In this document: piece after piece, positions 1,676 to 18,293 of the stretch
Layout of the letters: each line of letters opens with the position of its first letter
Position numbering within the stretch: the stretch's first letter is position 1
Assembly: GCA_044222185.1 (NCBI GenBank)
Contig: JBGANV010000002.1
Location: 736,001 to 800,000 of the forward strand
Source: Planctomycetota bacterium
Lineage (GTDB): Bacteria; Planctomycetota; GCA-002687715; CAIWVZ01
Direction of reading: 5' to 3'
Length of the DNA: 64,000 bases
Program-made: the position numbers and the translations under genes
Notes under the pieces: model-generated
Seen by the model: only the letters and a program-made list of their open reading frames with translations
Database searches by the model: none
Told to the model about the DNA's origin: nothing

Positions 1676-3550
1676 TCAGGGGACGAAGACCGTCGTCTCG
1701 GGGTTCGACATGCGGAGTCCGCCGGCGATCGTGGGGTCGGACACGACCGCTTGAAGCGTGATGGTCGCTCCCGTGGGGACCGTCGCCGGGACGAGAATCG
1801 TCTCCAGCCCTTCGCCGTTCGAGTTCGCGATCCCGGAAGGACCACCGGCGAAGCCGTTCACGATGAAGATCGGCGACGCGCTGAGATTCAGGTTGATCAG
1901 GCCGGGGCCGACGGCAATCCCGGGCGACGACGCGATCCCGACCGCGATCGCATAAGGCGAGTTGGCGTGCGCCGTCACGCCGGGGAACACGGGGATGCCC
2001 ACGCGCACCGGGCGCGGCGCCGCGGTCCCGAATCCGGCGCGGCCAGCCCAGTTGTTGATCCGCAACGTGGCGCCGCAGTCCGGTGGTTGTGCGCCAGGCG
2101 TGTTGGGCCCGTTCTGCACGTACAAGCGAGCCTGATCGGCGATCTCGTCCGTCGCGATGATGTCCACGTCGCCATCCCGGTCCAGGTCGACCAGGGTCGT
2201 GCACGAGCCCGCGGAGGTCGACGGCAGCGTCGTCGGCGGACCGAACGCCCCGGCACCGGTGTTGAATCGCACAGTGTAGTTCGACGATCCGTAGTTCGAC
2301 ACCACGCAATCGAGGTCGCCATCGCCGTCGAGATCGGCGAGGTCCACCGCGGCCGGGAGGTTTCCCACGCCGAAGGTCGTGGCTGCGCCCAGACTCCCGG
2401 CGCCATTGCCGAGCATCACGCCGAGCGTGTTCGTTCCGCGGTTGGCGGTGACGACGTCCACGTTCCCGTCACCATTCAGATCGCCCGTGGCGTTCTGGAA
2501 CGGCCCGCCGCCGCACGCGCGTGTCACGCTGATCGTGAACCCGCCAGCTCCGTTCCCGAGCAGGACCGTGACGCTGCCCGAGCCGAGGTTGCCGACGAAG
2601 AGGTCCGGTTTGCCATCGTTGTTGGCGTCGGCGACGGAGACGTTGTCCGGGCTCACGCCGCCACTGGAGATGCTCAGAAGCTGCGTGAAGGCGCCCGTGC
2701 CGTCGTTGGCGAAGGGGATGATGGCGGAGTTGTTCGCGGCGACGACGTCCTGGTCGCCGTCGCCATCGAAGTCGAGCACCGCGACACCGTGCGTGTACCC
2801 GCCAGTCGGGTACGTGACCGGTGGCAGGAATCCGCCGGAGCCGTTGCCCAGGTAGATGGAGATCGCTCCGCCGCCCTGATTCCCCGTCACGAGATCCATC
2901 CAGCCGTCGCCGTTGAAGTCACCGCCCTCGTTCGGACTGGGCTCTTGTCCGGGCGCCGGGACGATGGTCATGGGGCCGAACGTTCCACAACCGTCGTTGT
3001 GGAGCACGCGGATGTCGTGCGCGACTTCGTTCGGGGCCGTGATGTCCGGGCTGCCGTCGCGATCCACGTCGCCGCCGAATACGCCGTAGGTCGCGATCAG
3101 ACCTTCTCCTGGCTGTCGCAGCGCGATGGTCTGCTGAAGCGAGAATGCCGCCGTGCCTGGAGCCGGCCGGCCCCAGAAGTGCGAGAAGAATCCGCCCGTC
3201 AGCGCGGCTCCCGTGGCCGAGTGCACTGACGATGCGACGCGCACCGTGACGTTTTCGCCCGGGAAGTACGGTCGCGCCGGTTGGAAGACGACGTGATTGC
3301 TGCCGGGGCCGACGGTGAGCGTGCCGGAGACGTCGCCGCTCCAGCGGCCCGCGACCTTGATCGATGCGGACGTCACGGTCGCCGGATTGACGGCCGCGCT
3401 GAAAGTCAGTTCGACGGGATCGGCCGTCGACGAGAGGTTCGAGTTTCGGCTCGGCGTCACGGCGGTGACGGCAAATGATTGGGCGATGGCCGCTTGGATC
3501 GCCAGGAGGCTGATCGCAACCGAAGCCAGGTAGGGTCGTGGCGTGGACAT
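1676..3550 (-). CDS. Secreted FG-GAP/VCBS repeat protein with N-terminal bacterial Ig-like (Big_5-like) domain and shared C-terminal domain
   Basis: ATG 3550 with GGAGAG upstream. Signal peptide ending AIA|Q. PVELTFSAAVNPATV Ig-like motif. Seven DxDxDG-type repeats (GDVDRDGSPD, GDFNGDGWMD, LDFDGDGDQD, ADANNDGKPD, GDLNGDGNVD, ADLDGDGDLD, VDLDRDGDVD). Confidence 0.88.
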   Translation of the reverse strand: MSTPRPYLASVAISLLAIQAAIAQSFAVTAVTPSRNSNLSSTADPVELTFSAAVNPATVTSASIKVAGRWSGDVSGTLTVGPGSNHVVFQPARPYFPGENVTVRVASSVHSATGAALTGGFFSHFWGRPAPGTAAFSLQQTIALRQPGEGLIATYGVFGGDVDRDGSPDITAPNEVAHDIRVLHNDGCGTFGPMTIVPAPGQEPSPNEGGDFNGDGWMDLVTGNQGGGAISIYLGNGSGGFLPPVTYPTGGYTHGVAVLDFDGDGDQDVVAANNSAIIPFANDGTGAFTQLLSISSGGVSPDNVSVADANNDGKPDLFVGNLGSGSVTVLLGNGAGGFTISVTRACGGGPFQNATGDLNGDGNVDVVTANRGTNTLGVMLGNGAGSLGAATTFGVGNLPAAVDLADLDGDGDLDCVVSNYGSSNYTVRFNTGAGAFGPPTTLPSTSAGSCTTLVDLDRDGDVDIIATDEIADQARLYVQNGPNTPGAQPPDCGATLRINNWAGRAGFGTAAPRPVRVGIPVFPGVTAHANSPYAIAVGIASSPGIAVGPGLINLNLSASPIFIVNGFAGGPSGIANSNGEGLETILVPATVPTGATITLQAVVSDPTIAGGLRMSNPETTVFVP

Positions 3551-3663
3551 GGGCTCTCCGAGATCTCCGTTCCGAGGGGCTGGACGTAGTTCTATAGACA
3601 ACGGAGAGCCGCGTGGGGCGGCCTGCTCGGGTGGCAGGCCTCGCGTCGCGACCGACCGGCCTC

Positions 3664-6600
3664 TCACGTCGGCGCCAGCGTGGCTGGCGACGGCGCCGCC
3701 GCATCTTCCGGGATCGCGTAGGCCGTGAAGCTCGCATCGAGATCGTCCAGGTCCGCCGGACGCGGCCGGGCCGCCAGGATCAGGCGCGCGAGCAACGTGT
3801 CGAGCGCCGTCCGGTTGGTCACGGCCACCGGAACGAGTCTCGAAACGAACCGCACCTTCTCCGCCGGAGTGAACGCCTTCGCCGCGAGAACCCGCGAGGC
3901 GAAGAACGACGCGAGCAACGGAGCCCACCGCGGATCGGGCACCCGGACCGTCGATCCGTCCGGCAGGTCCGCATCCGGCGCGCCGACCTCGGGGTTCACT
4001 CGCTGCCAGTCGGGCAGGCGCCACTGGTACGCGCGGGCCAACGCTTCCAACGAGCGTGCTGCCAGCAACCACGCCGGGAGCCGGCTCGTCGGGTTGACGA
4101 CGCGACGTTTGGCGTACGTCTCGCCGACTTTGTGCTGTGCGCAGAATTCCATGGCCTGCGGATCCCGGATGAAGCGGTCCATCGTCGCGGGAAGCCACGT
4201 GTCGCCCTTCAGCGCCAGCGGCCACCAGATGTCCACGAGCGCGTGGACGCGGCTGACGGTGCGCGCACAGAACACCAGGTCCTGGACGTTGTGCGCCGCG
4301 CCGAACACGGACCGGAGCACGGGGTCGATGATCCCGGGAGGCGCGCCGCAGATCGCGAGCGTCTCGGCGACGAGCAGATTCGCCGGAGCCTGGAACCCCG
4401 CGTATCCCGTGGGGATCTTGAACGCCTTCTCGGCGAGCGCCCCGGCAGGCTCGTTCAGCACGAGTTGACGAACCTCCGCCAGCGCGCAGAGCGTGCGTCG
4501 ATGTTCGCCCCAGGAGTCGCCGCGCCCCCGCTCGCGTGCGAGCCCGCCGAGGGCCTCGAGTGCCTGCGTCTGCATGGCTTCGAGGAGGCCTCGCGCTCCG
4601 GGGTCGACCGCGGCGCGGCACCCGACGACGGTGATCGGCCCCGCCGACCCGAACTCCCGTCCGGCCCCGGCCAGCGCCGCCGCGAGGATTGGCTTCGCCA
4701 TGTCTCGGACCCAGTCCTGGCTCTTGTGGCGCGCGACGGCGAGGAGGATCTCCCACAGCGATCCGTTGCGGTAGACCCGATACGCGTTCGCGGAATGCAG
4801 CGCGACGTAGTCCCGCAGCTTCGCGTCACCGACCTGCGGATTCAGCTCTGCGAAGGCGACGAGCTTGGGCGCATCGAACTCGGCCTGGTAGCGCGTGCCC
4901 TCGACGTCGCGGTGTCCGCGGGCCGGTGGCGGCGCCGATTGATCCCAGAGCATGGACGGATTGACGCGCTCGTCGTCGCCGCCGCCGACGCGGTTGAAGA
5001 TCTCGTTGATCGTGTCCTCGCCGACGGGCTCGGCGATCGGCTGCACGATGGGAGCGCGTTTCTCGAATGCCGCGTTCACGCGCTCGGCGAGGCGCGCCGG
5101 ACGTTGCGCCGTCTTGCGCAGGGCGTCGGCCGTCACCGGATCCTTCGCGTGACCCAGCCACGCGATCACCAGTCGAGCTGCGTCCTGCCAGTCGACGTCC
5201 GCCTCGTAGAGCTGGAGTTCCTTGACGGCTTGTGCGACCTGTCCCTCCTCCGCGAGACGGAAGATGCGGTTCGCATCCAGCCGAGTGCGGCGGAACGTCG
5301 TGAGGCCCAGTGCCAGCCGGGCGACGTGCCCCACGGACGCGCTCGATCCCGATCCCGCGACTGCGGCGAGGGCCGAGCGCAACGTCGTGTCGACTCCGAA
5401 CGGATCGTCGATGCGCGCCTCGGTGATCTGCGTGTCGAGGCAGAAGCGAGCGATGCGCTCGTGCCACGTCGCCTTCTCGGGCGCTGGGACCACCTTCGCG
5501 ACTTCGCAGAGATGGTGACCGAGGTGTGTGAGCGCGTAGGGCCGCACGGTGAACCGATCGGCCTCGAACGTGGCGAAGAGTCCGTCCGCGAGGAGGCGGT
5601 GGCCGTCGACGACGGCGACCGCATACGGACCCCCTCGAGCCGTCTCGTCAGCGAACCACTCGCTCAAGGAGCTGTGGAAGATGGTGTGACGCGGTGTCGG
5701 GCCAGTCGTGGATCGCAGGTAGGAACTCACCGTGCGGAGCCGTGCAGCCAAATCCTTCGGTGCCGCGATCGCGGTGGCGGCAGACAGCTCCTCCGTCGCC
5801 AGCGGTTCCTGCGCCGCGCACAGAGCGGCGAAGATCGGACGCACCGAGGCCCAGGCTGCCGGATCGGCGAACTGCCGATCGAAGAAGAGGCGATATTGCT
5901 GGCGAAGCCCGGGCGGCAGCTTCCCCAGGTCGTCCACGCCGATGAGCTTCCGCTCGAGGCCGGCGAGCGTCTGTTCGGCGTACAGGAAATTGCCGTCGGC
6001 TGCGTCGGCGATCTTGCTCACGCACCACTCGGTCGTCTGGCCGCTCGCGGCGACGAGTTGCGCCAGGCCCGGCGTCGTGAGGCGCGCGTGTGCCAGAGCG
6101 CGAAGGTCGGTGGCGTTCTGCGTTCCGCTGGCCTCGAGAACCAGGGGATTGATGCCTGCGAACGACTCGAGCAGCGGTTTCTCCGGGCGGCTCGTTGCGA
6201 TCACCGTGAGCCACGACGGAAGACGGTCGAGTCGTTCTGCGACGAGGCTGGCGATGGTGGGTTTGCCCTCGATCGCACCGCGCAGAGATTCGTCGAGAGC
6301 GTCGACGATGATCGTCCACGCGCCCGGCGCGGGAGCTCCGACGGTCGCGAGCGCGGCGAGGATGCCCTCGTCGAACGCGCTCGCGGGGTCGTCGTTGCAC
6401 GCGCGTTCGGAGAGGACGTCACGGTAGGGCGACTGCTGGACGATCGCCTCGTACGCTGGATGTCGACTGGCGATGAGGCCCGCGAGGCTGCGCACGAAGC
6501 GGCTCGGGTTGACCGTCTCCGGCGTCGCGGACTGACAGCAGTGGAAGCCGAGGACGCGGCCGTCGGGATTGCGGTGGACGGACTCGGCGACGATGGCCGT

Positions 6601-7260
6601 CTTGCCCGTGCCCGGACCGCCGACGATCAAGATCGCAGGTTGAGCCCGCTTTCGGATCTGGTCGTCGATCTCCTGGAACAGCCACTCGCGGCCGGTGAAT
6701 CCGGCGCGCTTCTGATCCAGGTAGTCCCCGAAGTCCCACGGAGAGAGCTGGTCTGGCGTGGCACGGTTGCCCCACTTGCCGGTGAGGACGGCGTCGAGGC
6801 CCTCGAGGATGCGTTTGAGTCCCGCTGCATACGCCGTCGGGTCCTTCCACTTCGTGAGGTCGACGTAGTCGAGGCGGAAGATCTCGAAGGGCGGCGTGCA
6901 AGGGATCGCCATCACCGGGAGGATGGGTTTCCTCGCCTGGAACCGCGCCCAGGAGATTTCGTCGAGGCAGACGCTGTCCGTCGTGGACGTGCCGTCGCCG
7001 CGAGTGCGCACGGACGACGGCGTGAGGATCGCGAGAACTGCATCGGTTTCGTTCAACGCTCGGGCAAGTTGCTCGGCCCAGGCGCGGCCCGTGCGGATCT
7101 CGGCGCGATCCTTCCAGGGTTCGTAGTGCGCGAGCGGGTCCAGTGCGTGCGTGGCGAGGTCCTTGGCGAGCTGGTCGGCGAGTCCGCTGGCGTCGGAGCG
7201 CCCGTAGCTGACGAACACCTTCTTCGAGGCTGTCACGTTCCCGTCTCCGTCTGCATCCAT
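3664..7260 (-). CDS. TIR domain + NACHT/STAND P-loop NTPase (NLR-like) protein with C-terminal LysM-like module
   Basis: KKVFVSYGRSD...WKDRAEIRTG...SVCLDEISWA (TIR_2-like, Glu retained). Walker A GGPGTGKT, Walker B IIVDALDE, sensor VIATSRPE, GNFLYA and HTIFHSSLSEWF winged-helix motifs. Start is either ATG 7260 or GTG 7236 (GGAG upstream). Confidence 0.85.
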   Translation of the reverse strand: MDADGDGNVTASKKVFVSYGRSDASGLADQLAKDLATHALDPLAHYEPWKDRAEIRTGRAWAEQLARALNETDAVLAILTPSSVRTRGDGTSTTDSVCLDEISWARFQARKPILPVMAIPCTPPFEIFRLDYVDLTKWKDPTAYAAGLKRILEGLDAVLTGKWGNRATPDQLSPWDFGDYLDQKRAGFTGREWLFQEIDDQIRKRAQPAILIVGGPGTGKTAIVAESVHRNPDGRVLGFHCCQSATPETVNPSRFVRSLAGLIASRHPAYEAIVQQSPYRDVLSERACNDDPASAFDEGILAALATVGAPAPGAWTIIVDALDESLRGAIEGKPTIASLVAERLDRLPSWLTVIATSRPEKPLLESFAGINPLVLEASGTQNATDLRALAHARLTTPGLAQLVAASGQTTEWCVSKIADAADGNFLYAEQTLAGLERKLIGVDDLGKLPPGLRQQYRLFFDRQFADPAAWASVRPIFAALCAAQEPLATEELSAATAIAAPKDLAARLRTVSSYLRSTTGPTPRHTIFHSSLSEWFADETARGGPYAVAVVDGHRLLADGLFATFEADRFTVRPYALTHLGHHLCEVAKVVPAPEKATWHERIARFCLDTQITEARIDDPFGVDTTLRSALAAVAGSGSSASVGHVARLALGLTTFRRTRLDANRIFRLAEEGQVAQAVKELQLYEADVDWQDAARLVIAWLGHAKDPVTADALRKTAQRPARLAERVNAAFEKRAPIVQPIAEPVGEDTINEIFNRVGGGDDERVNPSMLWDQSAPPPARGHRDVEGTRYQAEFDAPKLVAFAELNPQVGDAKLRDYVALHSANAYRVYRNGSLWEILLAVARHKSQDWVRDMAKPILAAALAGAGREFGSAGPITVVGCRAAVDPGARGLLEAMQTQALEALGGLARERGRGDSWGEHRRTLCALAEVRQLVLNEPAGALAEKAFKIPTGYAGFQAPANLLVAETLAICGAPPGIIDPVLRSVFGAAHNVQDLVFCARTVSRVHALVDIWWPLALKGDTWLPATMDRFIRDPQAMEFCAQHKVGETYAKRRVVNPTSRLPAWLLAARSLEALARAYQWRLPDWQRVNPEVGAPDADLPDGSTVRVPDPRWAPLLASFFASRVLAAKAFTPAEKVRFVSRLVPVAVTNRTALDTLLARLILAARPRPADLDDLDASFTAYAIPEDAAAPSPATLAPT

Positions 7261-7469
7261 CCCACCGCAGGTACCCCACGATCGAGCGGGCCCTCGTCTG
7301 TGGCGCGCAGTGTGCCACAGGCGTGCGATCGCCGCTTCGTGAGGTGAGGATTCTGTGGCCCTGGGGCGACACGGCACGCGGCCGACGCGCCTCGAGTCGA
7401 CGTCGCGGGTGTTGCGGGCGCGGAAGTCGTTCTGTCGACGGGCGCTGCCGTCGGCATACAATCCGCGCC

Positions 7470-9551
7470 ATGTCTCGGGCGGAGTGCATTCGGTGGGGCG
7501 TCGTTCTGACCGCAGTGGCCGCGCTCGGCGTGGTCGCCGCGCGGCTGGGCCTTCCGAGCGACGCTGCGCAAGCCGTGGCGGGCCGCGGAGACGCCGGCAC
7601 ATCCGCTCCCCCTGACGTGGTGGCGTCGACGGATGGACACGGAGGGCACCACGACGCATCCCCGGACACGATCGTGCGGCCCGTTCCGTTCTCACCGGAG
7701 CCCGCTGACTCGCTCGAAGACGTTCCGGTCGTCCCTGCGGAAAGCGAAGGGACTCGGGTGCGCGTCGTCGACGGCTCCACCGGCGCACCCGTCGCGGGCG
7801 CCGACGTGTATTGGGTCCCGCCGGAACACGATGCAAGCGGCACCGACGCGTTTCGTCCGGAGTTGCTCGACGGGCCACCGTCACCAGGCACGCGGCACTA
7901 CCGGACGGACGGAAGCGGCATGACGACGGTCCCGTGGAGTTCGGAGCGGGTATCGCTGTTTGCACGCTTGGGCGATCTCGGCGCGGTTGGCCTCAGTTGG
8001 GCACGAGATGGCGAGGTCGTCACGATGACGCTCGAGTCCGTGATCAGGCTCCGCATCCTCGCCGAAGACTCCACGGGAGCGCCGGTCCGCTGGGCCGACT
8101 TGACGATGGACTCGCCCGCGCCCTGGGATGCGCGTCATCACTCCGTCGCGACGACCATGCCGCCGGATGGGATCGCCACGTTCGTCGACCTCGCTCCGCT
8201 GCTTGCGGTGAGCGGCGCGCTCGCGGCGGTTTCACGCCCATCGGTTCGCGGGGATTCCTGGACCATCGGCACCGTCCTCGGCGGTCCCATCGTGAACGGG
8301 AGCGCCGTCGATCCCCGGCAATTGGCGACGCACGTGCATTCAGTGCGGCTGGGCCCCGTCGGCGCGATCGAGGGGCGGCTCGTGACGCGCGACGGCACAC
8401 CGATTCCCGGCCCTGCATTCGTTTCCGCCGCTCGCGTCGACCCGGCACGCGCTTCGACGGGAGTGATCTACCGCCGCGCTCCCCAGTGCGGTGCGTTCCG
8501 CATCGGGGCCGTTCCGCTGAATTCCGTGCTGTCGATCACGGCACGCCTGCCGGGTCGATACGAGCAAGCGACGACGATCGTCGGGCCGACGTCCGGTGGC
8601 GAGGTGGTCGCGGCCGCGATCGTGGTGGGCGACGAATTCCTGCGCATCCGAGGCAAGCTCGTCGATGATCACGGGCATGCGATCGCCCAGGACGCGCGCG
8701 TGGTTGCCACACTGGAGGCGTCGGATGGCGCCCGGTTGCCGGAGCTCGAGACCCAGATGAAACCTGATGGCGTCTTCGAGATCGAGGTGCCGTTCCGCCT
8801 GAGGATCCGACCCGCGGTGCTGAGATTCGCCATCGCACAGAAGGGCCCCGCGCCGCCTTGGTCGGGCCAGGTGGGCTTCCCGGATCCGGCTCCGTTGCAC
8901 GTCGTCGACGTGCGCACCGTCGTTCTGGAAGTCCCAGACCTGATCGCCTCCGGAGTGGTCGTCGATCAAGAGGGAAGACACGTCCCGGGTGTGCGGGTCG
9001 TGCTCCAAGCTGCGGCACCCTCCACCGATCCCGGCGACGATTCAGGCGAAGAGGACTTCAAGTGGACCGATCTCTCCTGGACGACGGGCGCTGACGGCAC
9101 GTTCTTCGCGTTCGGCAAACCGCCGGAGGGTCATCTGGCGTTCGGGTGTGCAGGTGGCGGATTCATCCAGGTCACCTCCACGCCATTCACACGCGGAGAC
9201 CGCGGCGTGCGATTGGTCGTCGACGCGACGTCGACGATCGGCGGTCGCATCGAACTCCCGCCAGGAGTCGCGTCGAGTGACGTGACGGTCACCGCCACGT
9301 ACGGCGGCGCGTCGGTGACCGATCGCGCGGCGATCATCCCATTGAGGTTGGCGGCCGACGGCACGTTCCGCCGCGAGAATCTCGCGCCGACGTCCGTGCA
9401 TCTTCAGTTGACGGTGAGAGGCGCGCACTCGAACCTCTCGCGCGAGTTGGGGACCTTCCCTCTCGCCGTCGACGCCGTGATCGAGCCGCCCGAGCTGAAC
9501 CCGCTGGTTCTCGCCGAACCTGCTCCCGGCGGGGCCGACCGCACGCGTTGA
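7470..9551 (+). CDS. Membrane-anchored carboxypeptidase-regulatory-like (transthyretin-like beta-sandwich) repeat protein
   Basis: N-terminal hydrophobic helix. Repeated G-x-V-V-D-x2-G-x-P-V-x-G motifs (VRVVDGSTGAPVAGA, GRLVTRDGTPIPG, GVVVDQEGRHVPGV). Confidence 0.75.
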   Translation: MSRAECIRWGVVLTAVAALGVVAARLGLPSDAAQAVAGRGDAGTSAPPDVVASTDGHGGHHDASPDTIVRPVPFSPEPADSLEDVPVVPAESEGTRVRVVDGSTGAPVAGADVYWVPPEHDASGTDAFRPELLDGPPSPGTRHYRTDGSGMTTVPWSSERVSLFARLGDLGAVGLSWARDGEVVTMTLESVIRLRILAEDSTGAPVRWADLTMDSPAPWDARHHSVATTMPPDGIATFVDLAPLLAVSGALAAVSRPSVRGDSWTIGTVLGGPIVNGSAVDPRQLATHVHSVRLGPVGAIEGRLVTRDGTPIPGPAFVSAARVDPARASTGVIYRRAPQCGAFRIGAVPLNSVLSITARLPGRYEQATTIVGPTSGGEVVAAAIVVGDEFLRIRGKLVDDHGHAIAQDARVVATLEASDGARLPELETQMKPDGVFEIEVPFRLRIRPAVLRFAIAQKGPAPPWSGQVGFPDPAPLHVVDVRTVVLEVPDLIASGVVVDQEGRHVPGVRVVLQAAAPSTDPGDDSGEEDFKWTDLSWTTGADGTFFAFGKPPEGHLAFGCAGGGFIQVTSTPFTRGDRGVRLVVDATSTIGGRIELPPGVASSDVTVTATYGGASVTDRAAIIPLRLAADGTFRRENLAPTSVHLQLTVRGAHSNLSRELGTFPLAVDAVIEPPELNPLVLAEPAPGGADRTR

Positions 9552-9690
9552 CCTGAGATGCCGTTTGAGTCGTCGGCCGTCAGGTCCGGCTCGATCTCAC
9601 GCGCGCCGCCCGGCGCCGACGCCGTCCGCAGAGCCGTGCGCTCTCGTTCGGGGGATGCGTCGTCAGCACTGCGTCCATGGAATGTTCGGC

Positions 9691-10648
9691 ATGCGTCGCG
9701 GCAGGCTCATTCACCGTGGGTACGTCATCGTCACGGTCGCTGCCGTGCTCGGAATCGGGGTTTCTCTGCTCGTGAATTCGAGGCAACCCGTCGCGCCATC
9801 GCGGTCTCACGTTCCCAGCTCTGCGAAGAGCGCGAGCGACGACGCCCAGGTTTCCGTACGGATACAGCCTCCTGTTCGGACATCGACCTTCGAAGGGGCA
9901 CCGTCAGGGGCGATCGCAGACCTCGCGCTGTCTGCACCGCATCCCAACGGAATCCGCATCCGCGTCGTATCGGGCGCGACGATGTATTCGCGCGCATGAC
10001 CGATGCGTCGTGCGTCGCCACGAGATCGTCGTTGCCGGACGTGTCGTCGATGCCGCAGGGCGGCCGGTTCCTGGGATTCGTTTGTGGGAGAACGTCGCGC
10101 GGCAGACCTCCGATCCCGCGGACGCGAGCACGTTCGTCCTGACGGGAGCGACGACCGAAACGGATGCCAACGGCGAGTTCCGAATCTGCCGCCGAGCGAC
10201 AGCCCAGCAGCGAGCAACTGGGTGGTTCGCGCTCACCTGGGCGGGAGCCGGTTTCACGCACGCGCAGCCCCGTTCGTTCGTGCACGGGCAGCGCGACGTC
10301 ACGATCACGCTGGAAGAAATGGCCACCTTCTCGGGTCGGGTGGCGTTCCCTCGTGGTGTCCGAGCGCGCGACGTCACGCTCGAGCTCTTCTACTCGACGC
10401 CGCGTCAGGACGATCGGCGCCCCGCAGCGATCGGCGTTCCACTGGACGACGATGGCCATTTCGCCGTCGAACGACTCGCGCCGACGACGGCATCGCTCGT
10501 TGCCGTCGTGACCGGTACCGACGGCGAGGCGTACCGGACCATCGACGGAATTCGGCTCGTAGCCGGAGGTTCGACGTCGGATTCGCGCCTCTCGCCTTTG
10601 ACGCTCAGCGAGCGTCGGGCGGAATCCGGACCGAGTCGCGAGCGGTGA
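9691..10648 (+). pseudogene. Split, internally deleted paralogue of the upstream carboxypeptidase-regulatory-like protein
   Basis: N-terminal TM fragment 9691-9999 in one frame. The 10010-10648 fragment in another frame aligns by eye with the last ~200 aa of 7470-9551 (GRVVDAAGRPVPGI, TDANGEF, DDDGHFAVERLAPT). Confidence 0.6.
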
Positions 10649-10813
10649 GTGGCCGGCCCGCCGGCGCAGATTCCAAACCGGGAGAGCAGCTTTGAATCTC
10701 GAGCCTGAGACGACTCCGGAACACCCATTCCGGTAATCTTGCGCGCTCTCGCGACACCATGCGGTCAACGGAATTCCGCGGTGCGCGGTCTTGAGTCAGT
10801 GGAGGCTCGTCGA

Positions 10814-12586
10814 ATGTCGGCAGGGATGAAACTCGTCGTGGCCGTGGTGTGGGCCATCGTCGGTGTGCGAGAGCTCGCGGCTCAGGCCCAGGGCGGAATC
10901 GGCGGCGTCATCCTGCCGCCGCCGGAAGTGGGGAACTGCATCTCCGACGCCGACCAGCTGCGCGTCCAGGCTCAGCTGATGAACGTGTCGGCCGGCCCCG
11001 ACACCGCACCCGGGACGTTCATCACCTACCCGCAGGCAGGGTCGCTCGGCGAGGACCTCTTCATCGGCGCCTACCTCGACCACGACCCGAGCCCGGGCGT
11101 GCTCGACTGGCACTGCACGGATTACACCTACGACACGCACCTGGGCGCCGACTCGGAGATCCGCAGCTTCGGCGAGCAGCTGATCGGCGTGCCCATCTTC
11201 GCGGCGGCCGACGGCACGGTCGTCGGCACGGACGACGGCCATCCCGACATGAACACCGTGTGGGCCGGCCAGCCCTCCAACTACGTCATCGTCGACCACG
11301 GCGGCGGACGCCTGGGCTACTACTGGCACATGCGCAACGGCAGCGTGGCCGTGTCCATGGGGCAGGTCGTGAAGGCCGGCCAGCAACTGGGGGAGACGGG
11401 CTCCAGCGGCAACAGCGGCGGCCCGCACCTCCACTTCGAGGTCCACGACGCGGGCGTTCCCGTGGACCCGTGGGCCGGTGCGTGCCGCCCCGGCGGCTCC
11501 TTGTGGAAGCAGCAGACGCCGTGGACCGGAGGGCCTGTCGGCTTGCGGGACTTCGGCGTCTGCCGCACGAATCCCGGTTCCTCCGGCTACCCCTTCGCGT
11601 CGCCTCACGATCCTCAGTGGGTCACGTCCGACCCATCCATCTTCTTCTGGGGGCTCATCGCGAACCTCCCGGTCAGCTCCACGTACCGCGTGACGTTCAT
11701 CCGCCCGGACAACTCCATCTCGTATGCCACGCCCACGTTCCCCATCGGCAACACGACGGTGTGGCCGCGCGCCTGGGTGTGGTGGAACTGGAACATCTTC
11801 GACATGCACACGATCACGGGCACGTGGACCATCCGCCTCGAACTGAACGGCGTGGTCGTCGTGAATGCACCCGTCTCGGTCGTCAACGCGGTCACGCCCG
11901 GGTTCAACCGCGCGCCGTCGCCCATCACCGCGACGATCCTGCCGGCGGCTCCCACCGCGGCCGATCCGCTGGTCTGCCGCGTCCAGCAGGACCTCCTCCT
12001 CGACGACCTCGACTGGGACATCGTTCGCTTCACCTACACGTGGCGCGTGAACGGGACGATCGTGCGCACGCGGACGTCCGCGGGACGCACCGACATGATC
12101 CCGCACCACCTGGCACCTCCGGGCGCCACGGTCACCTGCACGGTCACGCCCTCCGACGGCGTGGCGAACGGGGCGACCGTCGTCGCGACGACGACGATCC
12201 GCACGCTCGGCGTCTTCCCGCAGCAGGTGTCCGCGGCGACCGGAGGCACGATCTGCTTCACCGTGGACATGGGACCCGCACAGGCCGGAGCGACCTACCT
12301 CTTGGGCGGCTCCTACACCGGGACGTCGCCGGGCATCGTCGCGTCACCGACGGTCACGATCCCGCTCGTGTACGACGGCCTCACGGACTTCCTCGTGTTC
12401 CATCCGAACACCCCGCCGTACGCAGGTACGCTCGGCGTGTTGAGCCCGCAGGGCGCGGCCGCCCCGACGCTGAGCCTGCCGCCGCTGCCGCCCGCATACG
12501 TCGGTCTCACGATCCACCACGCGGCGTTCATCGCCGGGGCGCCATGGGCGGCCACGAACGCCGCGTCGTTCGTGACGGCGCCCTGA
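10814..12586 (+). CDS. Secreted M23-family metallopeptidase with Ig-like domains and shared C-terminal domain
   Basis: GGAGG at 10801. Signal peptide ending LAA|Q. HxxxD (HLGAD), YWHM and HxH (GNSGGPHLHFEV) M23 motifs. Confidence 0.88.
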   Translation: MSAGMKLVVAVVWAIVGVRELAAQAQGGIGGVILPPPEVGNCISDADQLRVQAQLMNVSAGPDTAPGTFITYPQAGSLGEDLFIGAYLDHDPSPGVLDWHCTDYTYDTHLGADSEIRSFGEQLIGVPIFAAADGTVVGTDDGHPDMNTVWAGQPSNYVIVDHGGGRLGYYWHMRNGSVAVSMGQVVKAGQQLGETGSSGNSGGPHLHFEVHDAGVPVDPWAGACRPGGSLWKQQTPWTGGPVGLRDFGVCRTNPGSSGYPFASPHDPQWVTSDPSIFFWGLIANLPVSSTYRVTFIRPDNSISYATPTFPIGNTTVWPRAWVWWNWNIFDMHTITGTWTIRLELNGVVVVNAPVSVVNAVTPGFNRAPSPITATILPAAPTAADPLVCRVQQDLLLDDLDWDIVRFTYTWRVNGTIVRTRTSAGRTDMIPHHLAPPGATVTCTVTPSDGVANGATVVATTTIRTLGVFPQQVSAATGGTICFTVDMGPAQAGATYLLGGSYTGTSPGIVASPTVTIPLVYDGLTDFLVFHPNTPPYAGTLGVLSPQGAAAPTLSLPPLPPAYVGLTIHHAAFIAGAPWAATNAASFVTAP

Positions 12587-12596
12587 TCGCCTCCCG

Positions 12597-15212
12597 TCAG
12601 CGTCGTTCGAGGAAGTCGAGGAGCTTCGCCTGCGCGTTCCGGTTCTTGTCCTGGAACGCACCGCGGATCGCGTCCTTTTCCCGCGTCGTGAGGTGCCAGG
12701 AGAGCGGGGGAGTCTGCGTGAGTCCCTCGGGGACGAACCGGAAGAACTCGATCTGGCCCTTCAGGTGACGTGCCACGAGGTCGCGCTCGATTTCCGCGCG
12801 CACGAGCTGCGTCCGCCGCCAGGTGGCGAGGAGGAGATCCAACGGCCCGAGGAGCGCATTCCGCCAGGCATCGACCTGCCCGGCGTCCGCCGTGGTCGGA
12901 GGTGCATCCGGAAACGATTGGATCTGCACGACGGCGATTCGCGGCGGCTCGGCGACGTCGAGCGTCCGCAGAAGCCAGTCCAGGACGGTCGCTACCCCGT
13001 AGTTGTCGAAGTAGCCACCGTCGCCGACGTAATAGCCGGGCGCGATCGGATCGACGCGGCCCTCCTCGACGCGCGCGGCGCGCGACAGCGGCGAGACGTA
13101 GGGGAACGATGCCGACAGCCGCGCCGCCGTGACGATGGCGATGTCGCTCGCGCGCCCGAACACGCGGAAGAAGTTCGGTGCGCGGCCCAGATCCGACTCG
13201 CTGCTCGTCAAGTCGATCGTCGAGAGCATCAGCCTCTGACCCTTGAGCTCGAGTTCGTGGACCCCGCCCAGCGTGGCGTTGAACACGACGGGCGGTATGC
13301 GGCCGGACTTCGTCTCGGTCACCCAGTCGCCCAGCGTGGCATCCAGCGGAGGATCCACGCCGTCGCCGTCGCCGGTGAACTGTCGCTGCCACGACCGTTC
13401 CAGGGCGATGCCGCGGTCCATCTGCAGATCGACGAGCCAACGCAGCGGCATGGCGGGTCGGCGGATGTCCTTGAACACCGTCGCCCATCCCACGGCATTC
13501 AGGCTCGAGCGCATGGCGACTTCGCGCACGCGTTTGCGCGCCGCGGGAGTCAGCGATGACGAATCACGCCCGCGCCTGCGCAGCGCTTCCACGTAATACA
13601 TCGCCCCGACGCTCCCACCGGACACGGAGCTCAACAGTGCGAGCCGCGGAGCGAATCTGGGAATCGCATCGAGTTCGGTGAGGACCTCTGCGGTCCATCC
13701 CGCCGCCTGGATTCCTCCACCGGCCGTGCACACGACGACGACCGTCGGTTGTCTCGAGATCCCTTCGTCTTTCGCGCGCGCGGCGAGCGTGGTTGCGACC
13801 GTGGGTAGTTCGATGGCCTCGCGTCGAGCCTCGCTCGTCAGGAAGAAGTAATGCGTCGAGTGGCTCGAGATTCCGGACACGAGCGTCCACAGGAGGACGG
13901 CAAGCAGCAGGGGAAACCGCGCACGATCGAGGAAGAAAGACAGCCCCGAGAGTGTCGCGATCACGAGAGTCGCGAGGAACAACACCGCGGCGAGGGTAGG
14001 GAAGGAGTCCACTCCCGCACCGTCAGGAACCAGGAAGTTGCCGGCGATGAACGCGGCACCGAGCACGGACCAGGCCGCGGCGGCGCCTCGGTGCCCTGGA
14101 AGGAGCCCGCCCTCGGGACTCCAGTACCCGGCCCAGATCCAGGCGAGCGGTCGCGGACTCTGCGGGGCCTGGGGCGGCGCTTCCGGCGCCGGAGCCTCGT
14201 CCGCAGCGCGGCCCAGCACGGCGCGCTGAACCGAGATGACCAGCCCGATGGAGACGACTACCCCGAGCGACGTGATCACCGGCGCGAATCCGTCGAAGGT
14301 CGGTCCGTCGACGTGCATCATCCCCACGAAGGGGACGGAGAGTGCGACGGCGACCACGAATTGCACCAGGTCCTGCGATCGGCGCGGCCGGATCTCGTGA
14401 AGAGACGGCCAGGGCAACCGTGGGACCGAGAACCGGCTTGGCGCGTACCGCGCCGTGAGCAACGCGTTCGAGACGCACGTGATCGCCGCGAGTCCCAGCG
14501 CGAGGCCGCAGACGAAGAGATGCGCCCGGGACGGTAGCGCCATGACGCCGGCGGAGATCGCGGCGCCTCCCATCACCGCGGGAATGAGCACGAGGAAGAG
14601 CGCCCCGCTCGAAGGCACGCGGACGACCGCCGTCCACGCGAGCGCGTCGCCGAGCGAGTCCGCGACTGGGCGCCATTCGCGACGGAGCCATCGGGCTGCG
14701 GGGACGACCATGGTGATCGCGACCCACGCGAGCAGGAGCGCGAACTTGAGCGAAGCGGTGACTCCGACGATCGGCGGCACGAAACCGGGCGGCGGTGAGT
14801 CGCTCGTCGCGATCCAGAGCGCCACGTCCTCGACGACGTCGCAACCGGCGGCCAGGAGGATCAGCCGCGAAAGCGCGTTCACCGTCACGGGTCGCCAGCC
14901 GGAGCGTTCACCGCGTCGGCGCGTCACCCACAGCAGGCAGGTGGCGTATAGCGCGATGAATGGCAGGTCGTAGGCGAGGCTGCTCCGAACGAGGCGTGCC
15001 GTGGCGCCACGCACGTCCTGCGTGCGGTCGGCCTTCGGATCGAGCCGCGCCTCGAGCGCACCTGTCGAGAAGACGAATTCGAAATCGACGATGCTCCTGG
15101 CATCGCCGCCGTGGCGGCCGCAGTGACGGGCGATCTCGCCGTCGATGCAGCGCATCCACGCAGCGAGGCACAACAGGCCGACGCCGCAAACCAGCACCCG
15201 CCGTGACGTCAT
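12597..15212 (-). CDS. Polytopic membrane protein with C-terminal patatin/cPLA2-like phospholipase domain
   Basis: Many hydrophobic segments in the N-terminal half. AGGGIQAA oxyanion motif, SVSGGS nucleophile, SASFPYVSP and DGGYFDN catalytic Asp motif. Confidence 0.8.
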   Translation of the reverse strand: MTSRRVLVCGVGLLCLAAWMRCIDGEIARHCGRHGGDARSIVDFEFVFSTGALEARLDPKADRTQDVRGATARLVRSSLAYDLPFIALYATCLLWVTRRRGERSGWRPVTVNALSRLILLAAGCDVVEDVALWIATSDSPPPGFVPPIVGVTASLKFALLLAWVAITMVVPAARWLRREWRPVADSLGDALAWTAVVRVPSSGALFLVLIPAVMGGAAISAGVMALPSRAHLFVCGLALGLAAITCVSNALLTARYAPSRFSVPRLPWPSLHEIRPRRSQDLVQFVVAVALSVPFVGMMHVDGPTFDGFAPVITSLGVVVSIGLVISVQRAVLGRAADEAPAPEAPPQAPQSPRPLAWIWAGYWSPEGGLLPGHRGAAAAWSVLGAAFIAGNFLVPDGAGVDSFPTLAAVLFLATLVIATLSGLSFFLDRARFPLLLAVLLWTLVSGISSHSTHYFFLTSEARREAIELPTVATTLAARAKDEGISRQPTVVVVCTAGGGIQAAGWTAEVLTELDAIPRFAPRLALLSSVSGGSVGAMYYVEALRRRGRDSSSLTPAARKRVREVAMRSSLNAVGWATVFKDIRRPAMPLRWLVDLQMDRGIALERSWQRQFTGDGDGVDPPLDATLGDWVTETKSGRIPPVVFNATLGGVHELELKGQRLMLSTIDLTSSESDLGRAPNFFRVFGRASDIAIVTAARLSASFPYVSPLSRAARVEEGRVDPIAPGYYVGDGGYFDNYGVATVLDWLLRTLDVAEPPRIAVVQIQSFPDAPPTTADAGQVDAWRNALLGPLDLLLATWRRTQLVRAEIERDLVARHLKGQIEFFRFVPEGLTQTPPLSWHLTTREKDAIRGAFQDKNRNAQAKLLDFLERR

Positions 15213-15260
15213 GCGAAGGTCCCCCACCGTGACGCGCCCGCTGCCGTGCGATTCCTGCGC

Positions 15261-16211
15261 TCAACGCCCTTTCATCCGCACCAGTTCGGCCTCTGCCGCG
15301 ATGTGCCCGAACGCAGGCCAGTTCTCGCTGGACACGATCTCCTCGAAGATCTCACGCGCGCCATCGCGATCGCCGCCGAGCAACTTCCAGATTCCGACGC
15401 CGTAGGCGAGGGTCGCGAACGCGTTGGCGTCAGCGGAAGCCCGCGCCCCTGCCAGGACGGCGTTCGGTGATTCCTCGCCGCGAAACATCAGGAGGAGGCG
15501 CTGGTAGGCGTGATTCTCGACGAGCTGCATGTCCCGACTGATCGGCGGGAGCAGCGCGCCCGCATCGACGGCATGATTCGCACGTCGCAGCGCCAGGTAG
15601 AGCCAGTAGCTCTCCGAGCACCAGCGATCGTCGTTCGTCGCCGACTCCAATGCCTCGCGAAACACGACGGCCGCACGCTCGAACTCTCCACGCAAGTAGT
15701 AGGCGAGTCCCAGGTGATAGCGGATGTTCGATTGCAACGTCCCGATTGGAACGTTCGACGCGTTGGGCAGCCCGTCGGGTTCGACTTCGTCCGGCGTTCC
15801 GGCGACCAGCCCCCGCGCCTTCTCCAGGTCGACGATGGCGTCGCTGAACCGTCGCACGGTGATGTAGCGATGACCCCGGTGCCGCAGCAGCGCGGCCGAG
15901 TCGGGATGCCTGCCGAGCGTCTTCGTGTAGACGGCGATGGCCTCCTGGAAACGGCCGACGTATGCGAGGCGGCGTCCGACCCAGATCTGCGCTTCGACGT
16001 CGTCAGGTCGACTCGCGGCGCGCGACTCGGCGGCTTCGTACTGCTCGAGACGGCGCGTGTGCACGCCGGGGTCGAGGGGCGGCGCCACGAGCTCATCCCC
16101 GAGCAGCGATCTGGCCTGTACGCGCGGGCGATCCTCGGCCGAGCGGCAACCCGCCACGATCAGTACGAGCAGCACGCCGACCACACGGTTCCCGCACGTT
16201 CGCATTCCCAT
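15261..16211 (-). CDS. TPR-repeat lipoprotein
   Basis: Lipobox LIVAG|C. TPR-like helices (RRLAYVGRFQEAIAVY, YHLGLAYYLRGEFERA). Confidence 0.8.
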   Translation of the reverse strand: MGMRTCGNRVVGVLLVLIVAGCRSAEDRPRVQARSLLGDELVAPPLDPGVHTRRLEQYEAAESRAASRPDDVEAQIWVGRRLAYVGRFQEAIAVYTKTLGRHPDSAALLRHRGHRYITVRRFSDAIVDLEKARGLVAGTPDEVEPDGLPNASNVPIGTLQSNIRYHLGLAYYLRGEFERAAVVFREALESATNDDRWCSESYWLYLALRRANHAVDAGALLPPISRDMQLVENHAYQRLLLMFRGEESPNAVLAGARASADANAFATLAYGVGIWKLLGGDRDGAREIFEEIVSSENWPAFGHIAAEAELVRMKGR

Positions 16212-16291
16212 CGCGATCTCCGGCGCCCAGTGTGCGGCGGGGAAACGGGGGCGGCAAGTCGTCCGGGTTCACGGCCGGAGCCGCGGCGCAG

Positions 16292-18052
16292 TCATCGCGT
16301 CTTCGTCACGAGGGACAAATCGCGAGTGAGGCCCTCGAGACGCAGCACGTCTTCACGGTCGTGCGGATTCTCCGAGACGAGCACCTCCGCGACCGCGTGG
16401 GCGCGGCGCAGGAACTCCTCGGCGTGGTCGTACGACTTCGCGGCCATGTGCCCACGGGCGACGACCTCGCAGGCACTCACGAGCAGTCGCGTGAGATCGG
16501 TCTTCACGAGCGCGCCTCGGATCGCGTACTGACAGGCGCTGATCGCGCTCCGGCCGTGTGCGATGGCGAGTTCGGACTGCCCGAGCGCCAGATGGATGCG
16601 GGCCAGGCGGTAATGCGCACCGGCGACGTCGCTCTGCATGGCCGGGTTGCCGCCGTGCTCGTGGATGTACCCGCGATAGAGCGCGGCCGCCGAGTCGAGC
16701 GTGAGCTGGGCCTGGGCGTCGGACTCGGTTCCGGATTCGGTCGATGCGGCGGCCCGTGTGACGAGCCGGTCGAGGACGTCCTGGTTTCGGCGGAGCGTTG
16801 CCTCGGTACGTCGTTGCTCGGCTTCGGCCGACGTGCGCGCGCAGGTCGCCTCCAACGCCTTGAGCTCGGCACCCTTCAGCAGGTGCGTGGTCAAGTGCAG
16901 GGAGATCGTGAGGAAGATGAACAGGAACGACAGCCCCACGGCGACCGCCGGATTGCGGGCTGCCCAGCGACGTCCGCGGACGAGAGGGCCAGCGGGTTGC
17001 GCGAGGATCGCGCGGCCTTCGCGCACGCGCTGGAGCTCGTCGGCGAAGTCCGCCGCCGACTGGTATCGACGCCACGTGTCCTTCTCGAGCGCAGTTGCGA
17101 TGACCAGTGACAGTTCACGCGGCACCGCAGCGTTGACCTTGTGTGCGGCCTGCGGTTCCGTCACTTGAATCGCCTTCACGAGGCCCTCGCGCGTCGGAGC
17201 GTTGAACGGCCGGGCGAGCGTGACGAATTCGTAGAGGGTGACGCCGAGGGACCATACGTCGGTGCGCCGGTCGAGGCGTGACGTCTCGCCGCGGACCTGC
17301 TCCGGCGACATGTACGCCGGAGTGCCGAACATCTCTCCCGTTGCGGTGAGCGTCGCGGCATCCTCGTTCGTGTCGGATGCCAGGCCGAAGTCCAGGATCA
17401 CGGGCTGACCGTCGTTTGCGACGAGGATGTTGCCGGGTTTGATGTCGCGGTGGACGAACCCCGCGTTGTGGGCCACGTGGAGTGCGCGCGCCGCATCTTC
17501 GATCAGGCGGATGGCGTCGTGGATCGACTCGCGCGTGCTCGGGAGCGATGCCGGTCGCCGGCCGCGAGTCGACGGGGCACGCGGCCGTGTCTTGGCCGCG
17601 TGTGACGACCCTTCGCTGAACGCACCGGCATCGGTCAATCGCGATGAGGGCGTGATCGACGAGGGCGTCACTCGGACGGTGTCGTCACCGTCCTTGGCGC
17701 GACGAATCCGCGCAGCAAGCGTCTCGCCCTCCACGTACTTCATGGCGATGTATGGGATGTCACCCACGACGCCGGAGTCGTAGACGGTGCAGATCCCGGG
17801 GTGATCGATGCGCGCCGTCACCTGGGCCTCGCGCTCGAACCGGCCGCGGCAGACGGCGTCCGTGATCGCGCGACGCGAGAGCACCTTCAGCGCGACACGG
17901 CGTTGCTTCACGATGTCGTCGGCGAGGTAGACGACGCCTTGCCCGCCGCGACCCAGTTCGCGGATGACGTAGTACCGATCGGCCCACAGCGGGATGGACG
18001 TCGGAACCTCGCTCGCAACGTCGTGGCTGGATTTGGAGAGAATCTCTGGCAC
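16292..18052 (-). CDS. Hanks-type Ser/Thr protein kinase with TM helix and short TPR-like tail
   Basis: LGRGGQGVVY, VALK, HRDIKPGN, DFGLA, GTPAYMSPEQ, DVWSLG. Start uncertain (GTG 18052 chosen). Confidence 0.88.
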   Translation of the reverse strand: MPEILSKSSHDVASEVPTSIPLWADRYYVIRELGRGGQGVVYLADDIVKQRRVALKVLSRRAITDAVCRGRFEREAQVTARIDHPGICTVYDSGVVGDIPYIAMKYVEGETLAARIRRAKDGDDTVRVTPSSITPSSRLTDAGAFSEGSSHAAKTRPRAPSTRGRRPASLPSTRESIHDAIRLIEDAARALHVAHNAGFVHRDIKPGNILVANDGQPVILDFGLASDTNEDAATLTATGEMFGTPAYMSPEQVRGETSRLDRRTDVWSLGVTLYEFVTLARPFNAPTREGLVKAIQVTEPQAAHKVNAAVPRELSLVIATALEKDTWRRYQSAADFADELQRVREGRAILAQPAGPLVRGRRWAARNPAVAVGLSFLFIFLTISLHLTTHLLKGAELKALEATCARTSAEAEQRRTEATLRRNQDVLDRLVTRAAASTESGTESDAQAQLTLDSAAALYRGYIHEHGGNPAMQSDVAGAHYRLARIHLALGQSELAIAHGRSAISACQYAIRGALVKTDLTRLLVSACEVVARGHMAAKSYDHAEEFLRRAHAVAEVLVSENPHDREDVLRLEGLTRDLSLVTKTR

Positions 18053-18293
18053 GGAGAAAGCCGCCTGGACACGGGCGCACGGGGCGTGGGTTTCGAAGTC
18101 CCACACGCAGGTACGCGGACGCCTGACGCTGGTCTCTTTCGTCGCTTTCCGTGAATCGCTTGAGTCTCGAAAGAAAGGCCGAACTGTGCCGCCCCGGCCC
18201 GGATTCGCCCGCTGCGCGCCTGGGAAAATGCGCGGGTTCGGGACGGATGTGGGCTTGCTTCCGAACACGCGTCCGCCGATGCTGGCGCCCCTC

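Follow-up and report, generated by a model that had tools for sequence, protein, structure and literature searches.

The stretch of DNA analysed here (the window) comprises 64,000 nucleotides of contig JBGANV010000002.1 from a Planctomycetota bacterium (assembly GCA_044222185.1, positions 736,001 to 800,000). Its minus strand carries a gene whose 1198-amino-acid (aa) product combines an N-terminal TIR domain, a NACHT-like NTPase, a lid and winged helix, and a large C-terminal domain, hereafter the sensor, in which a module of apparent LysM-clan descent is embedded (Table 1). The gene coordinates take in the stop codon, and the ATG start at 7260 matches the start point of the homologues. The G+C content at third codon positions (GC3) of the open reading frame (ORF) is 0.85, against a genome coding range of 0.835 +/- 0.037, which points to a composition native to the host. 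The frame remains open 5' of 7260, where GC3 is 0.64 over 7261-7965 and the coding signal is gone. Long ORFs occur in many frames of the window because its G+C content is about 69%; a plus-strand ORF at 3613-7347, with an Arg/Gly-rich translation, was rejected as an antisense shadow. No signal peptide or membrane segment was found in the 1198-aa protein, whose highest 19-residue hydropathy value (1.57) lies inside the NTPase. The protein was therefore treated as cytoplasmic, which it probably is.

Table 1. Features of the TIR-NACHT gene, in window coordinates and protein residues.
Feature	Residues	Coordinates	Strand	Basis
Whole gene: TIR, NACHT-like NTPase, lid/winged helix, conserved sensor		3664..7260	-	Translation, Pfam, 31 full-length homologues
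TIR domain	15-148	6817..7218	-	Pfam TIR_2 (PF13676), E 3.4e-14, 53.8 bits (cut-off 28)
Codon of Glu101 (CLDEI motif), presumed catalytic glutamate	101	6958..6960	-	Alignment conservation
NACHT-clan P-loop NTPase	192-358	6187..6687	-	Pfam NPHP3_N, E 2.2e-12, 47.9 bits (cut-off 24.8)
Walker A GGPGTGKT	214-221	6598..6621	-	G214, P216, G217, G219, K220 at least 90% conserved
Walker B IIVDALDE	317-324	6289..6312	-	D320, L322, D323, E324 at least 90% conserved
Winged helix after NTPase	464-590	5491..5871	-	Pfam HTH_TANC1, E 1.4e-9, 38.4 bits (cut-off 27)
Conserved non-repeat C-terminal sensor	600-1198	3667..5463	-	Homologue searches
HxVGE..Y..R motif, just ahead of LysM-like module	1043-1052	4105..4134	-	H1043, G1046, R1052 at least 85% in 148 rows
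Putative LysM-clan module	1060-1110	3931..4083	-	Pfam on homologous segments, PDB profile search, hhalign
A1068	1068			Conserved in 139/148 rows
T/S1070	1070			Conserved in 140/148 rows
L1071	1071			Conserved in 136/148 rows
Y/F1078	1078			Conserved in 136/148 rows
N1089	1089			Conserved in 145/148 rows
G1102	1102			Conserved in 103/148 rows
P1108	1108			Conserved in 138/148 rows

An earlier note on this DNA had proposed an N-terminal TIR domain with a conserved Glu (CLDEISWA), a STAND/NACHT-type NTPase, and a C-terminal part devoid of a recognisable LRR, WD40 or TPR array. All three features are borne out here. The TIR_2 match lies well above its cut-off, and Glu101 is invariant in the 12 rows of the TIR alignment (A7); all 18 of the close TIR-bearing rows have it too, as does the member P0029. 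A search of solved structures with the family TIR profile returned the SARM1 TIR domain as its best match (E 9.3e-5, 25.8 bits), in an alignment that spans only profile positions 3-106. Opposite Glu101 in that alignment stands the Glu which, by counting from the range 563-657, is SARM1 residue 642 and which we take to be the catalytic glutamate of SARM1. The profile was needed for this match, the TIR domain of the window alone reaching only E 0.44 in the PDB. The domain thus resembles SARM1 and other NAD+-cleaving TIRs in its conserved Glu and in the best solved match of its profile, but the score is modest, and the activation scaffold is ARM-SAM in SARM1 and a NACHT module here. The best NCBIfam and PADLOC matches of the TIR domain are Thoeris-type signalling TIRs, and these are weak and partial. 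Eight ORFs of the own genome carry TIR_2 over its cut-off, several of them in open frames of 800-1270 aa; an NPHP3_N-type NTPase is present in only one of the eight, the gene described here.

The NTPase is assigned through NPHP3_N and HTH_TANC1, both above their cut-offs, and through intact Walker motifs, which fit the patterns GxxxxGK[ST] and D-x-x-D-E of NACHT-clade STAND proteins. The NACHT model itself (PF05729) scores 15.1 bits in the window protein, under its cut-off of 26.7, and matches 23 of the 32 family members at E<=0.01. Between the NTPase and the winged helix, residues 383-459 give a weak lid match (AAA_lid_TANC1, 14 bits) that is under its cut-off.

The sensor has no Pfam match even at E<=10 over residues 600-1198. 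Internal repeats were not found either, all 21 hhalign pairs among seven sensor blocks remaining at or below 3.2% probability. Searches of structural resources were similarly sparse: no PDB relative of residues 790-1055 was found, the profile of this part returning three inconsistent matches, and the whole-protein profile recovered only TIR and P-loop relatives from the PDB; within the sensor, only the LysM-like segment (see below) has sequence relatives there. The ESM Atlas yielded only unnamed clusters for the sensor (<=0.87) and no usable match for its LysM-like part. The sensor has many homologues nonetheless. A word-indexed search with residues 600-1198 retrieved 31 of them at 32-55% identity, and an exhaustive phmmer search of 1.84 billion cluster representatives retrieved 494 at E<=1e-3, 375 at E<=1e-10 and 256 at E<=1e-30. 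Many polar residues throughout the sensor hardly vary between phyla; the conserved residues of the family include E101, K220, N1089, H990, N991, Q993 and C998.

The earlier note had also read a LysM pattern at 3937-4062 (residues 1067-1108). This reading holds at the level of the family and fails for the segment of the window taken by itself. The 65-aa segment alone has no Pfam LysM (PF01476) match at E<=1, and none appears at E<=10 when it is searched as part of residues 600-1198 or in the own-genome search. We then ran 42 homologous segments of 60-67 aa singly against Pfam. LysM was matched by 22 of them (best E 2.8e-5), Phage_tail_X by 10 (best E 1.5e-4), LysM1_NFP_LYK by two and LysM_RLK by one, and every unrelated Pfam family was matched by one segment only. 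Among the 32 full-length members, P0024 alone matches LysM at E<=0.01, in the homologous place and with 20.4 bits against a cut-off of 20.9. A profile of the homologous segments, searched against 177,635 distinct PDB sequences, gave 24 matches at E<=10. At the head of the list, the best 11 comprise Ecp6, two Thermus NlpC/P60 proteins, SafA, tail protein X (2ltf, fifth, E 6.6e-4), three YkuD proteins, a LysM peptidoglycan-binding protein, LytE and CERK1; that these chains contain LysM is presumed from their names. In total, 17 of the 24 are proteins of LysM kind, and the remaining seven (five DnaB helicases, a tail fibre and DapE) all have E>=0.27.

Profile-profile comparison gave a similar picture. 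Against a canonical LysM set drawn from the own genome and 20 relatives, hhalign aligned the family segment over 44 columns with 92.7% probability (P 4.3e-7), whereas the reversed alignment gave 5.1%. Of 17 sliding 64-column windows along the sensor, the two that hold the segment gave 92.2% and 79.7%, and the other 15 gave at most 5.3%. The match spans, with no large gap, all four proposed elements, namely strand 1 (about 1063-1067), helix 1 (1070-1078), helix 2 (1083-1089) and strand 2 (1104-1107), and a crude propensity profile averaged over the alignment also reads strand-helix-helix-strand. Other comparisons returned weaker signals. LysM compared with the whole 598-column sensor was placed correctly with a probability of only 36%; a custom LysM hidden Markov model gave only weak matches to 176 family proteins (best E 1e-4); the six-frame search of the own genome (72,359 ORFs) had a canonical LysM ORF as its best non-self match, at only E 0.12; and the family profile recovered just this one of the three canonical LysM ORFs of that genome. 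The LysM-like module is kept in nearly all members, with gaps at its core columns in only 2-6 of the 148 aligned rows. The HKVGET stretch upstream, read earlier as a possible displaced first strand, is a separate conserved motif outside the LysM match; since the LysM alignments put strand 1 at about 1063-1067, no displaced strand is needed. Taken at family level, residues ~1060-1110 are thus best described, from sequence comparison, as a diverged LysM-clan module.

The module shares with the LysM domains of wall hydrolases and receptors (Ecp6, CERK1, YkuD, SafA, MltD, NlpC/P60) a profile-level homology over about 44 columns, including the helix-1 Thr-Leu, the Asn that ends helix 2 and the Gly...Pro of strand 2. 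It differs from them in several respects. Wall LysM domains are extracytoplasmic and often in tandem, whereas the family module is single, apparently cytoplasmic and embedded in a 600-aa domain. The window copy is under the Pfam threshold, and the canonical Gly-Asp turn ahead of the helix-1 Thr-Leu is replaced in the family by Ala and a variable residue. Phage_tail_X (PDB 2ltf) is likewise a LysM-clan member; it is a small phage tail protein that acts as a protein-contact module, whereas the family module is part of a host STAND sensor. Kbp (YgaU), a BON-LysM potassium-binding protein, is located in the cytoplasm. PMC5681659 describes the LysM domain of Kbp as acting, when K+ is present, by contacting the BON domain of the protein, which provides a precedent for LysM in a non-secreted bacterial protein. 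Kbp, however, has neither an NTPase nor a TIR domain, and it is related to the family through the LysM clan.

The modular make-up of the family was examined in a set of 176 proteins, fragments included, with effector classes assigned by profiles built from Pfam-labelled members. The N-terminal effector is TIR in 31 proteins, CHAT in seven and trypsin-like in three; 55 have the P-loop within their first 70 residues and thus no effector, 13 have an unassigned N-terminal extension, and 67 lack a recognisable P-loop, 36 of these being shorter than 700 aa. The NTPase is NACHT-like in 115, NB-ARC-like in 11 and absent from 50. A FastTree phylogeny built on the sensors of 97 full-length members requires at least 19 switches of effector, against 41-45 with shuffled labels. 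These counts and the tree indicate that the sensor is the constant part, on which effector and NTPase modules are swapped, in agreement with the earlier suggestion of a conserved C-terminal region behind exchanged N-terminal effectors. Among the 20 closest homologues, conservation peaks in the LysM-like segment, at 63% identity compared with 58% in the NACHT domain; the comparison is fair for this close set only, the distant set having been picked by sensor similarity. Short matches of 126-447 aa give no evidence of split genes, since their contigs measure 1-36 kb and many short proteins end at contig ends. No fused family form longer than 2098 aa was found, which is weak evidence.

About 500 cluster representatives make up the sensor family, which spans many phyla but is rare in every lineage searched. 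The own genome has a single copy of the gene, and the family is present in 1 of 23 genomes of the own order, in 1 of 301 sampled genomes of the own phylum and in 3 of 251 sampled genomes of the order of a Burkholderiales relative. The 48 related loci that we collected span at least 10 phylum-level groups and include Burkholderiales, other Pseudomonadota, Chloroflexota, Acidobacteriota, Actinomycetota, Deinococcales, Verrucomicrobia, Gemmatimonadota, Nitrospira, Polyangiaceae and Desulfuromonadales. Orthologues occur in the cultured strains Tunturiibacter lichenicola, Aromatoleum diolicum and Variovorax brevis and on a plasmid of Rhizobium jaguaris. The gene is split over two or three frames in seven of the 48 loci (L036, L038, L053, L065, L071, L080, L081), where sequencing indels and true pseudogenes are inseparable because several of the seven are long-read metagenome-assembled genomes. 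A plasmid search gave one match, the conjugative R. jaguaris plasmid NZ_CP032697.1 (L083), whose effector-less member (WP_120709336.1, annotated as hypothetical) lies between two transposase genes, with an S8 peptidase and an I9 inhibitor upstream and a RES-family toxin nearby.

The order effector, STAND NTPase and large C-terminal sensor is that of the Avs and bNACHT proteins, which the family also resembles in the swapping of TIR and protease effectors on a constant sensor, in its single-gene organisation and in its rarity within the lineages searched. It differs from them in lacking a PADLOC match to their models, in the absence of sequence repeats from its sensor, most described STAND sensors being made of TPR-like repeats (PMC13581612), and in its LysM-clan module. 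A bacterial NLR-like STAND protein with a TIR effector is already known as a kind. A LysM-bearing sensor, in contrast, appears to be undescribed in the literature searched, as the earlier note had supposed for the architecture as a whole. PMC13581612 does not use the word LysM in its main text or in seven supplementary files, and the word is likewise absent from the available portions of the bNACHT preprint and of PMC7159879. No description that joins LysM with bacterial NACHT or STAND proteins or with anti-phage defence was found in the searched literature, in which the matches listed for LysM with bacterial NACHT or STAND proteins concerned, by title and start of abstract, fungi, mammals or LysM-Cre mice. 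A look-up of six contigs, one protein and one plasmid by accession gave no match in the seven supplementary files of PMC13581612, but these are possibly incomplete, and the 684 unnamed sensor clusters of that paper may include the present family.

We favour, with confidence that is about evenly balanced, the reading of this gene as a cytoplasmic NLR-like defence switch of the Avs/bNACHT type that senses a protein through a new type of sensor. The mechanism is drawn from the analogy of STAND defence proteins already characterised. In the resting state, the NACHT-type NTPase would be kept closed by the large C-terminal domain. A trigger would bind this conserved, non-repeat and mostly helical domain with its embedded LysM-clan module, upon which the NTPase would exchange nucleotide and oligomerise. 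Oligomerisation would gather the N-terminal TIR domains, composite active sites around Glu101 would cleave NAD+, and the cell would cease to grow or die ahead of completion of the invader's cycle, as in abortive infection. Sister proteins would act through a CHAT or trypsin-like protease, or through a paired protease and hydrolase. The trigger would be a macromolecule from the invader, most likely a phage protein that is conserved, with the LysM-derived module as part of the binding surface; a GlcNAc (N-acetylglucosamine)-containing glycan comes second. Oligomerisation, NADase output, defence role and trigger are all inferred, as is every step beyond the domain assignments.

Several results are consistent with such a switch. 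TIR_2, NPHP3_N and HTH_TANC1 all exceed their Pfam cut-offs with the catalytic motifs intact, effector and NTPase modules are swapped, the gene is rare, and some relatives lie beside conflict-type genes. The Avs families with known triggers that are named in PMC13581612 all sense phage proteins, and protease and alpha/beta-hydrolase modules fused to STAND sensors are described as defence effectors in 10.1101/2025.11.14.688446. Other observations weigh against this reading. No model of a described system in PADLOC-DB 2.0.0, which had been proposed as a check, matches the protein beyond weak TIR and P-loop matches (best ThsB, E 4.9e-4), and no experiments on the sensor family were found in the literature. 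No family relative was found in INPHARED phages or IMG/VR, so that phage and viral records give no hint of a phage partner. The neighbourhood in the window is ordinary chromosome, not a defence island, and only seven of 125 nearest-neighbour ORFs from 46 loci match PADLOC at E<=1e-8, a raw count that comes with no background rate (144 candidate ORFs, of which 19 were dropped for a size limit). Finally, the sensor is not fast-evolving: its near-invariant polar residues across phyla look more like a pocket for an invariant ligand than like an arms-race surface.

This last point, together with the LysM-clan module, bears on the nature of the trigger. Its diverged LysM copy makes the sensor a candidate for the recognition of ligands other than phage proteins, and it is possible, if on balance improbable, that the module binds a cytoplasmic GlcNAc-containing glycan arising when the wall is attacked or its synthesis blocked, and so triggers the NACHT module and the TIR NADase. 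The ligand might be a recycled anhydro-muropeptide, accumulating UDP-MurNAc-peptide or lipid II, or a chito- or peptidoglycan oligomer, and the protein would be an analogue of NOD1/NOD2 or of plant LysM receptors. The solid family-level LysM homology, the retention of the module in nearly all members and its position as the best conserved segment in close orthologues all fit this proposal, as do the invariant polar residues in phyla whose phages differ and whose glycan backbone is the same, a pattern expected for an invariant small ligand. STAND proteins that sense non-protein molecules are held possible in the Discussion of PMC13581612, and 10.1101/2022.07.19.500537 predicts small-molecule-sensing C-terminal domains such as GUN4 in bacterial NACHT proteins. 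However, the protein is probably cytoplasmic, where peptidoglycan strands are not normally present, and it has one module only. Single LysM domains bind weakly and prefer oligomers. The loss of the canonical Gly-Asp, the Phage_tail_X matches of 10 of the 42 segments, the BON-dependent action of the Kbp LysM domain and the phage-protein nature of the named Avs triggers also speak against a glycan, and no peptidoglycan-recycling gene adjoins the gene in the window or its relatives in the 48 loci. NOD1 and NOD2 recognise peptidoglycan fragments, as cited in PMC13581612, and would resemble the window protein as NACHT-type NLRs that might respond to cytosolic wall fragments; they have LRR sensors and CARD effectors, whereas the window protein has no LRRs, a TIR output and a hypothetical ligand. 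We are somewhat more doubtful still about the stronger form of the idea, namely that the family is the first prokaryotic NLR-like receptor for a non-protein molecule, with a LysM-derived pocket that binds a wall GlcNAc glycan or muropeptide. An equally tentative part of it is the source of the ligand, which would be released by envelope attack from phage lysins, wall-synthesis-blocking lysis proteins, predators or antibiotics. The same low degree of confidence applies to its output, passing from NACHT to a TIR-mediated collapse of NAD+, or to protease or lipase activation in sister proteins.

We consider it unlikely that the protein is instead a cell-death or stress switch that serves the physiology of its own host (development, kin conflict or envelope stress) with no anti-phage role, its TIR domain making a signal and NAD+ not being depleted. 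The ordinary chromosomal neighbourhood, the native GC3, the few known-defence neighbours and the Thoeris-type signalling matches of the TIR domain, weak and partial as they are, would agree with such a role. Many of the hosts are complex soil or sludge bacteria (Chloroflexota, Actinomycetota, Acidobacteriota, Polyangiaceae), and NTPase conflict systems of a similar kind are tied to multicellular lifestyles in PMC7159879. But the very low prevalence in each lineage searched and the frame breaks in seven loci are better explained by a dispensable accessory gene than by core physiology, one copy lies between transposases on a conjugative plasmid, and the exchange of TIR, CHAT and trypsin-like effectors, with lipase partners, is the pattern of immune STAND proteins. 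It is very improbable that the LysM likeness itself is convergent or due to chance, the segment then being two helices of an all-helical sensor unrelated to LysM. Such a reading could appeal to the missing Pfam match of the window segment, alone or within the C-terminal region, to the single sub-threshold match among 32 full-length members, to the one canonical LysM ORF in three that the family profile recovers, and to the fact that the homology rests on sequence. It would leave unexplained the LysM matches of 22 of the 42 segments when no unrelated family is matched by more than one, the LysM proteins and LysM-like tail protein X that fill the 11 best of the 24 PDB matches, the gulf in hhalign probability between the segment and both the reversed control and the 15 windows that lack it, and the extension of the match over four elements with a strand-helix-helix-strand profile.

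Under the favoured reading of a protein-sensing switch, binding of a phage protein by the module would mean that a glycan-binding fold has been recruited as a protein sensor, and the family would add a new sensor class to the Avs catalogue. Were the module to bind wall fragments, guard-type sensing of wall damage would be common to bacterial, plant and animal immunity; such a receptor for a non-protein molecule would be the equivalent in bacteria of NOD1/NOD2 and of LysM-based immunity in plants, assembled from the same two ancient parts. The family offers a test case: its large and conserved sensor lacks repeats, has a glycan-binding ancestor that can be recognised, is found in many phyla and is wired to at least three effector types. 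Its domain boundaries, conserved residues and orthologues in cultured strains make it experimentally tractable under either reading of the trigger.

No single neighbour is shared by the related loci as a whole. In three loci (L044, L066, L077), a gene for an LCAT/PGAP1-like alpha/beta-hydrolase of about 490 aa precedes the STAND gene by 4-32 bp, and in L037 it is adjacent. The two genes form a unit in this subgroup, whose STAND proteins have an N-terminal domain of about 280 aa with conserved Cys and His motifs, which in our view resemble those of transglutaminase-like cysteine peptidases, an assumption that no tool confirmed. This domain had no match in the PDB, and no adaptor shared by the lipase and the STAND N-terminus was detected by BLASTP. 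In L034, a second STAND gene (6386-9526; DUF4062-NACHT-FGE-sulfatase) lies directly downstream of the closest Burkholderiales homologue; DUF4062 and NACHT with an FGE-sulfatase sensor is an architecture figured in PMC13581612. A second NACHT gene is present in L072, and other conflict-type neighbours are a TIR protein (L047), a CHAT protein (L059), an upstream subtilase (L042) and an integrase (L077).

In the window, the neighbours of the gene encode an FG-GAP secreted protein, a CarboxypepD_reg protein, an M23 peptidase, patatin-like and TPR proteins, kinases, a permease and ClpS. A search close to the gene found neither a tRNA nor convincing repeats at its flanks, an Rfam search of the window gave no match, and a scan for promoters and terminators at the gene was uninformative. 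A weak 37-nucleotide inverted repeat (73% complementary) flanks the gene at 3665-3701 and 7772-7808; it is probably due to chance, the DNA being 69% G+C. Beginning 113 bp past the stop codon, the downstream gene at 1676-3550 (minus strand) specifies a secreted protein of 624 aa whose start resembles a signal peptide and which carries one Big_5 Ig-like domain along with five FG-GAP repeats; it has no evident link to the STAND gene. The divergent upstream gene at 7323-9551 (plus strand) encodes a CarboxypepD_reg domain. Beyond it lie about 1.2 kb that lack a clear coding signal (9558-10738) and then the M23 peptidase gene at 10739-12586 (plus strand). Further on, three genes share the minus strand: a Ser/Thr kinase (16292-18298), a TPR protein (15261-16268) and an 876-aa protein (12597-15227) whose last third is patatin-like, at 26.1 bits just below the cut-off of 27.7. 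This trio (12597-18298) could be a kinase-regulated phospholipase module.

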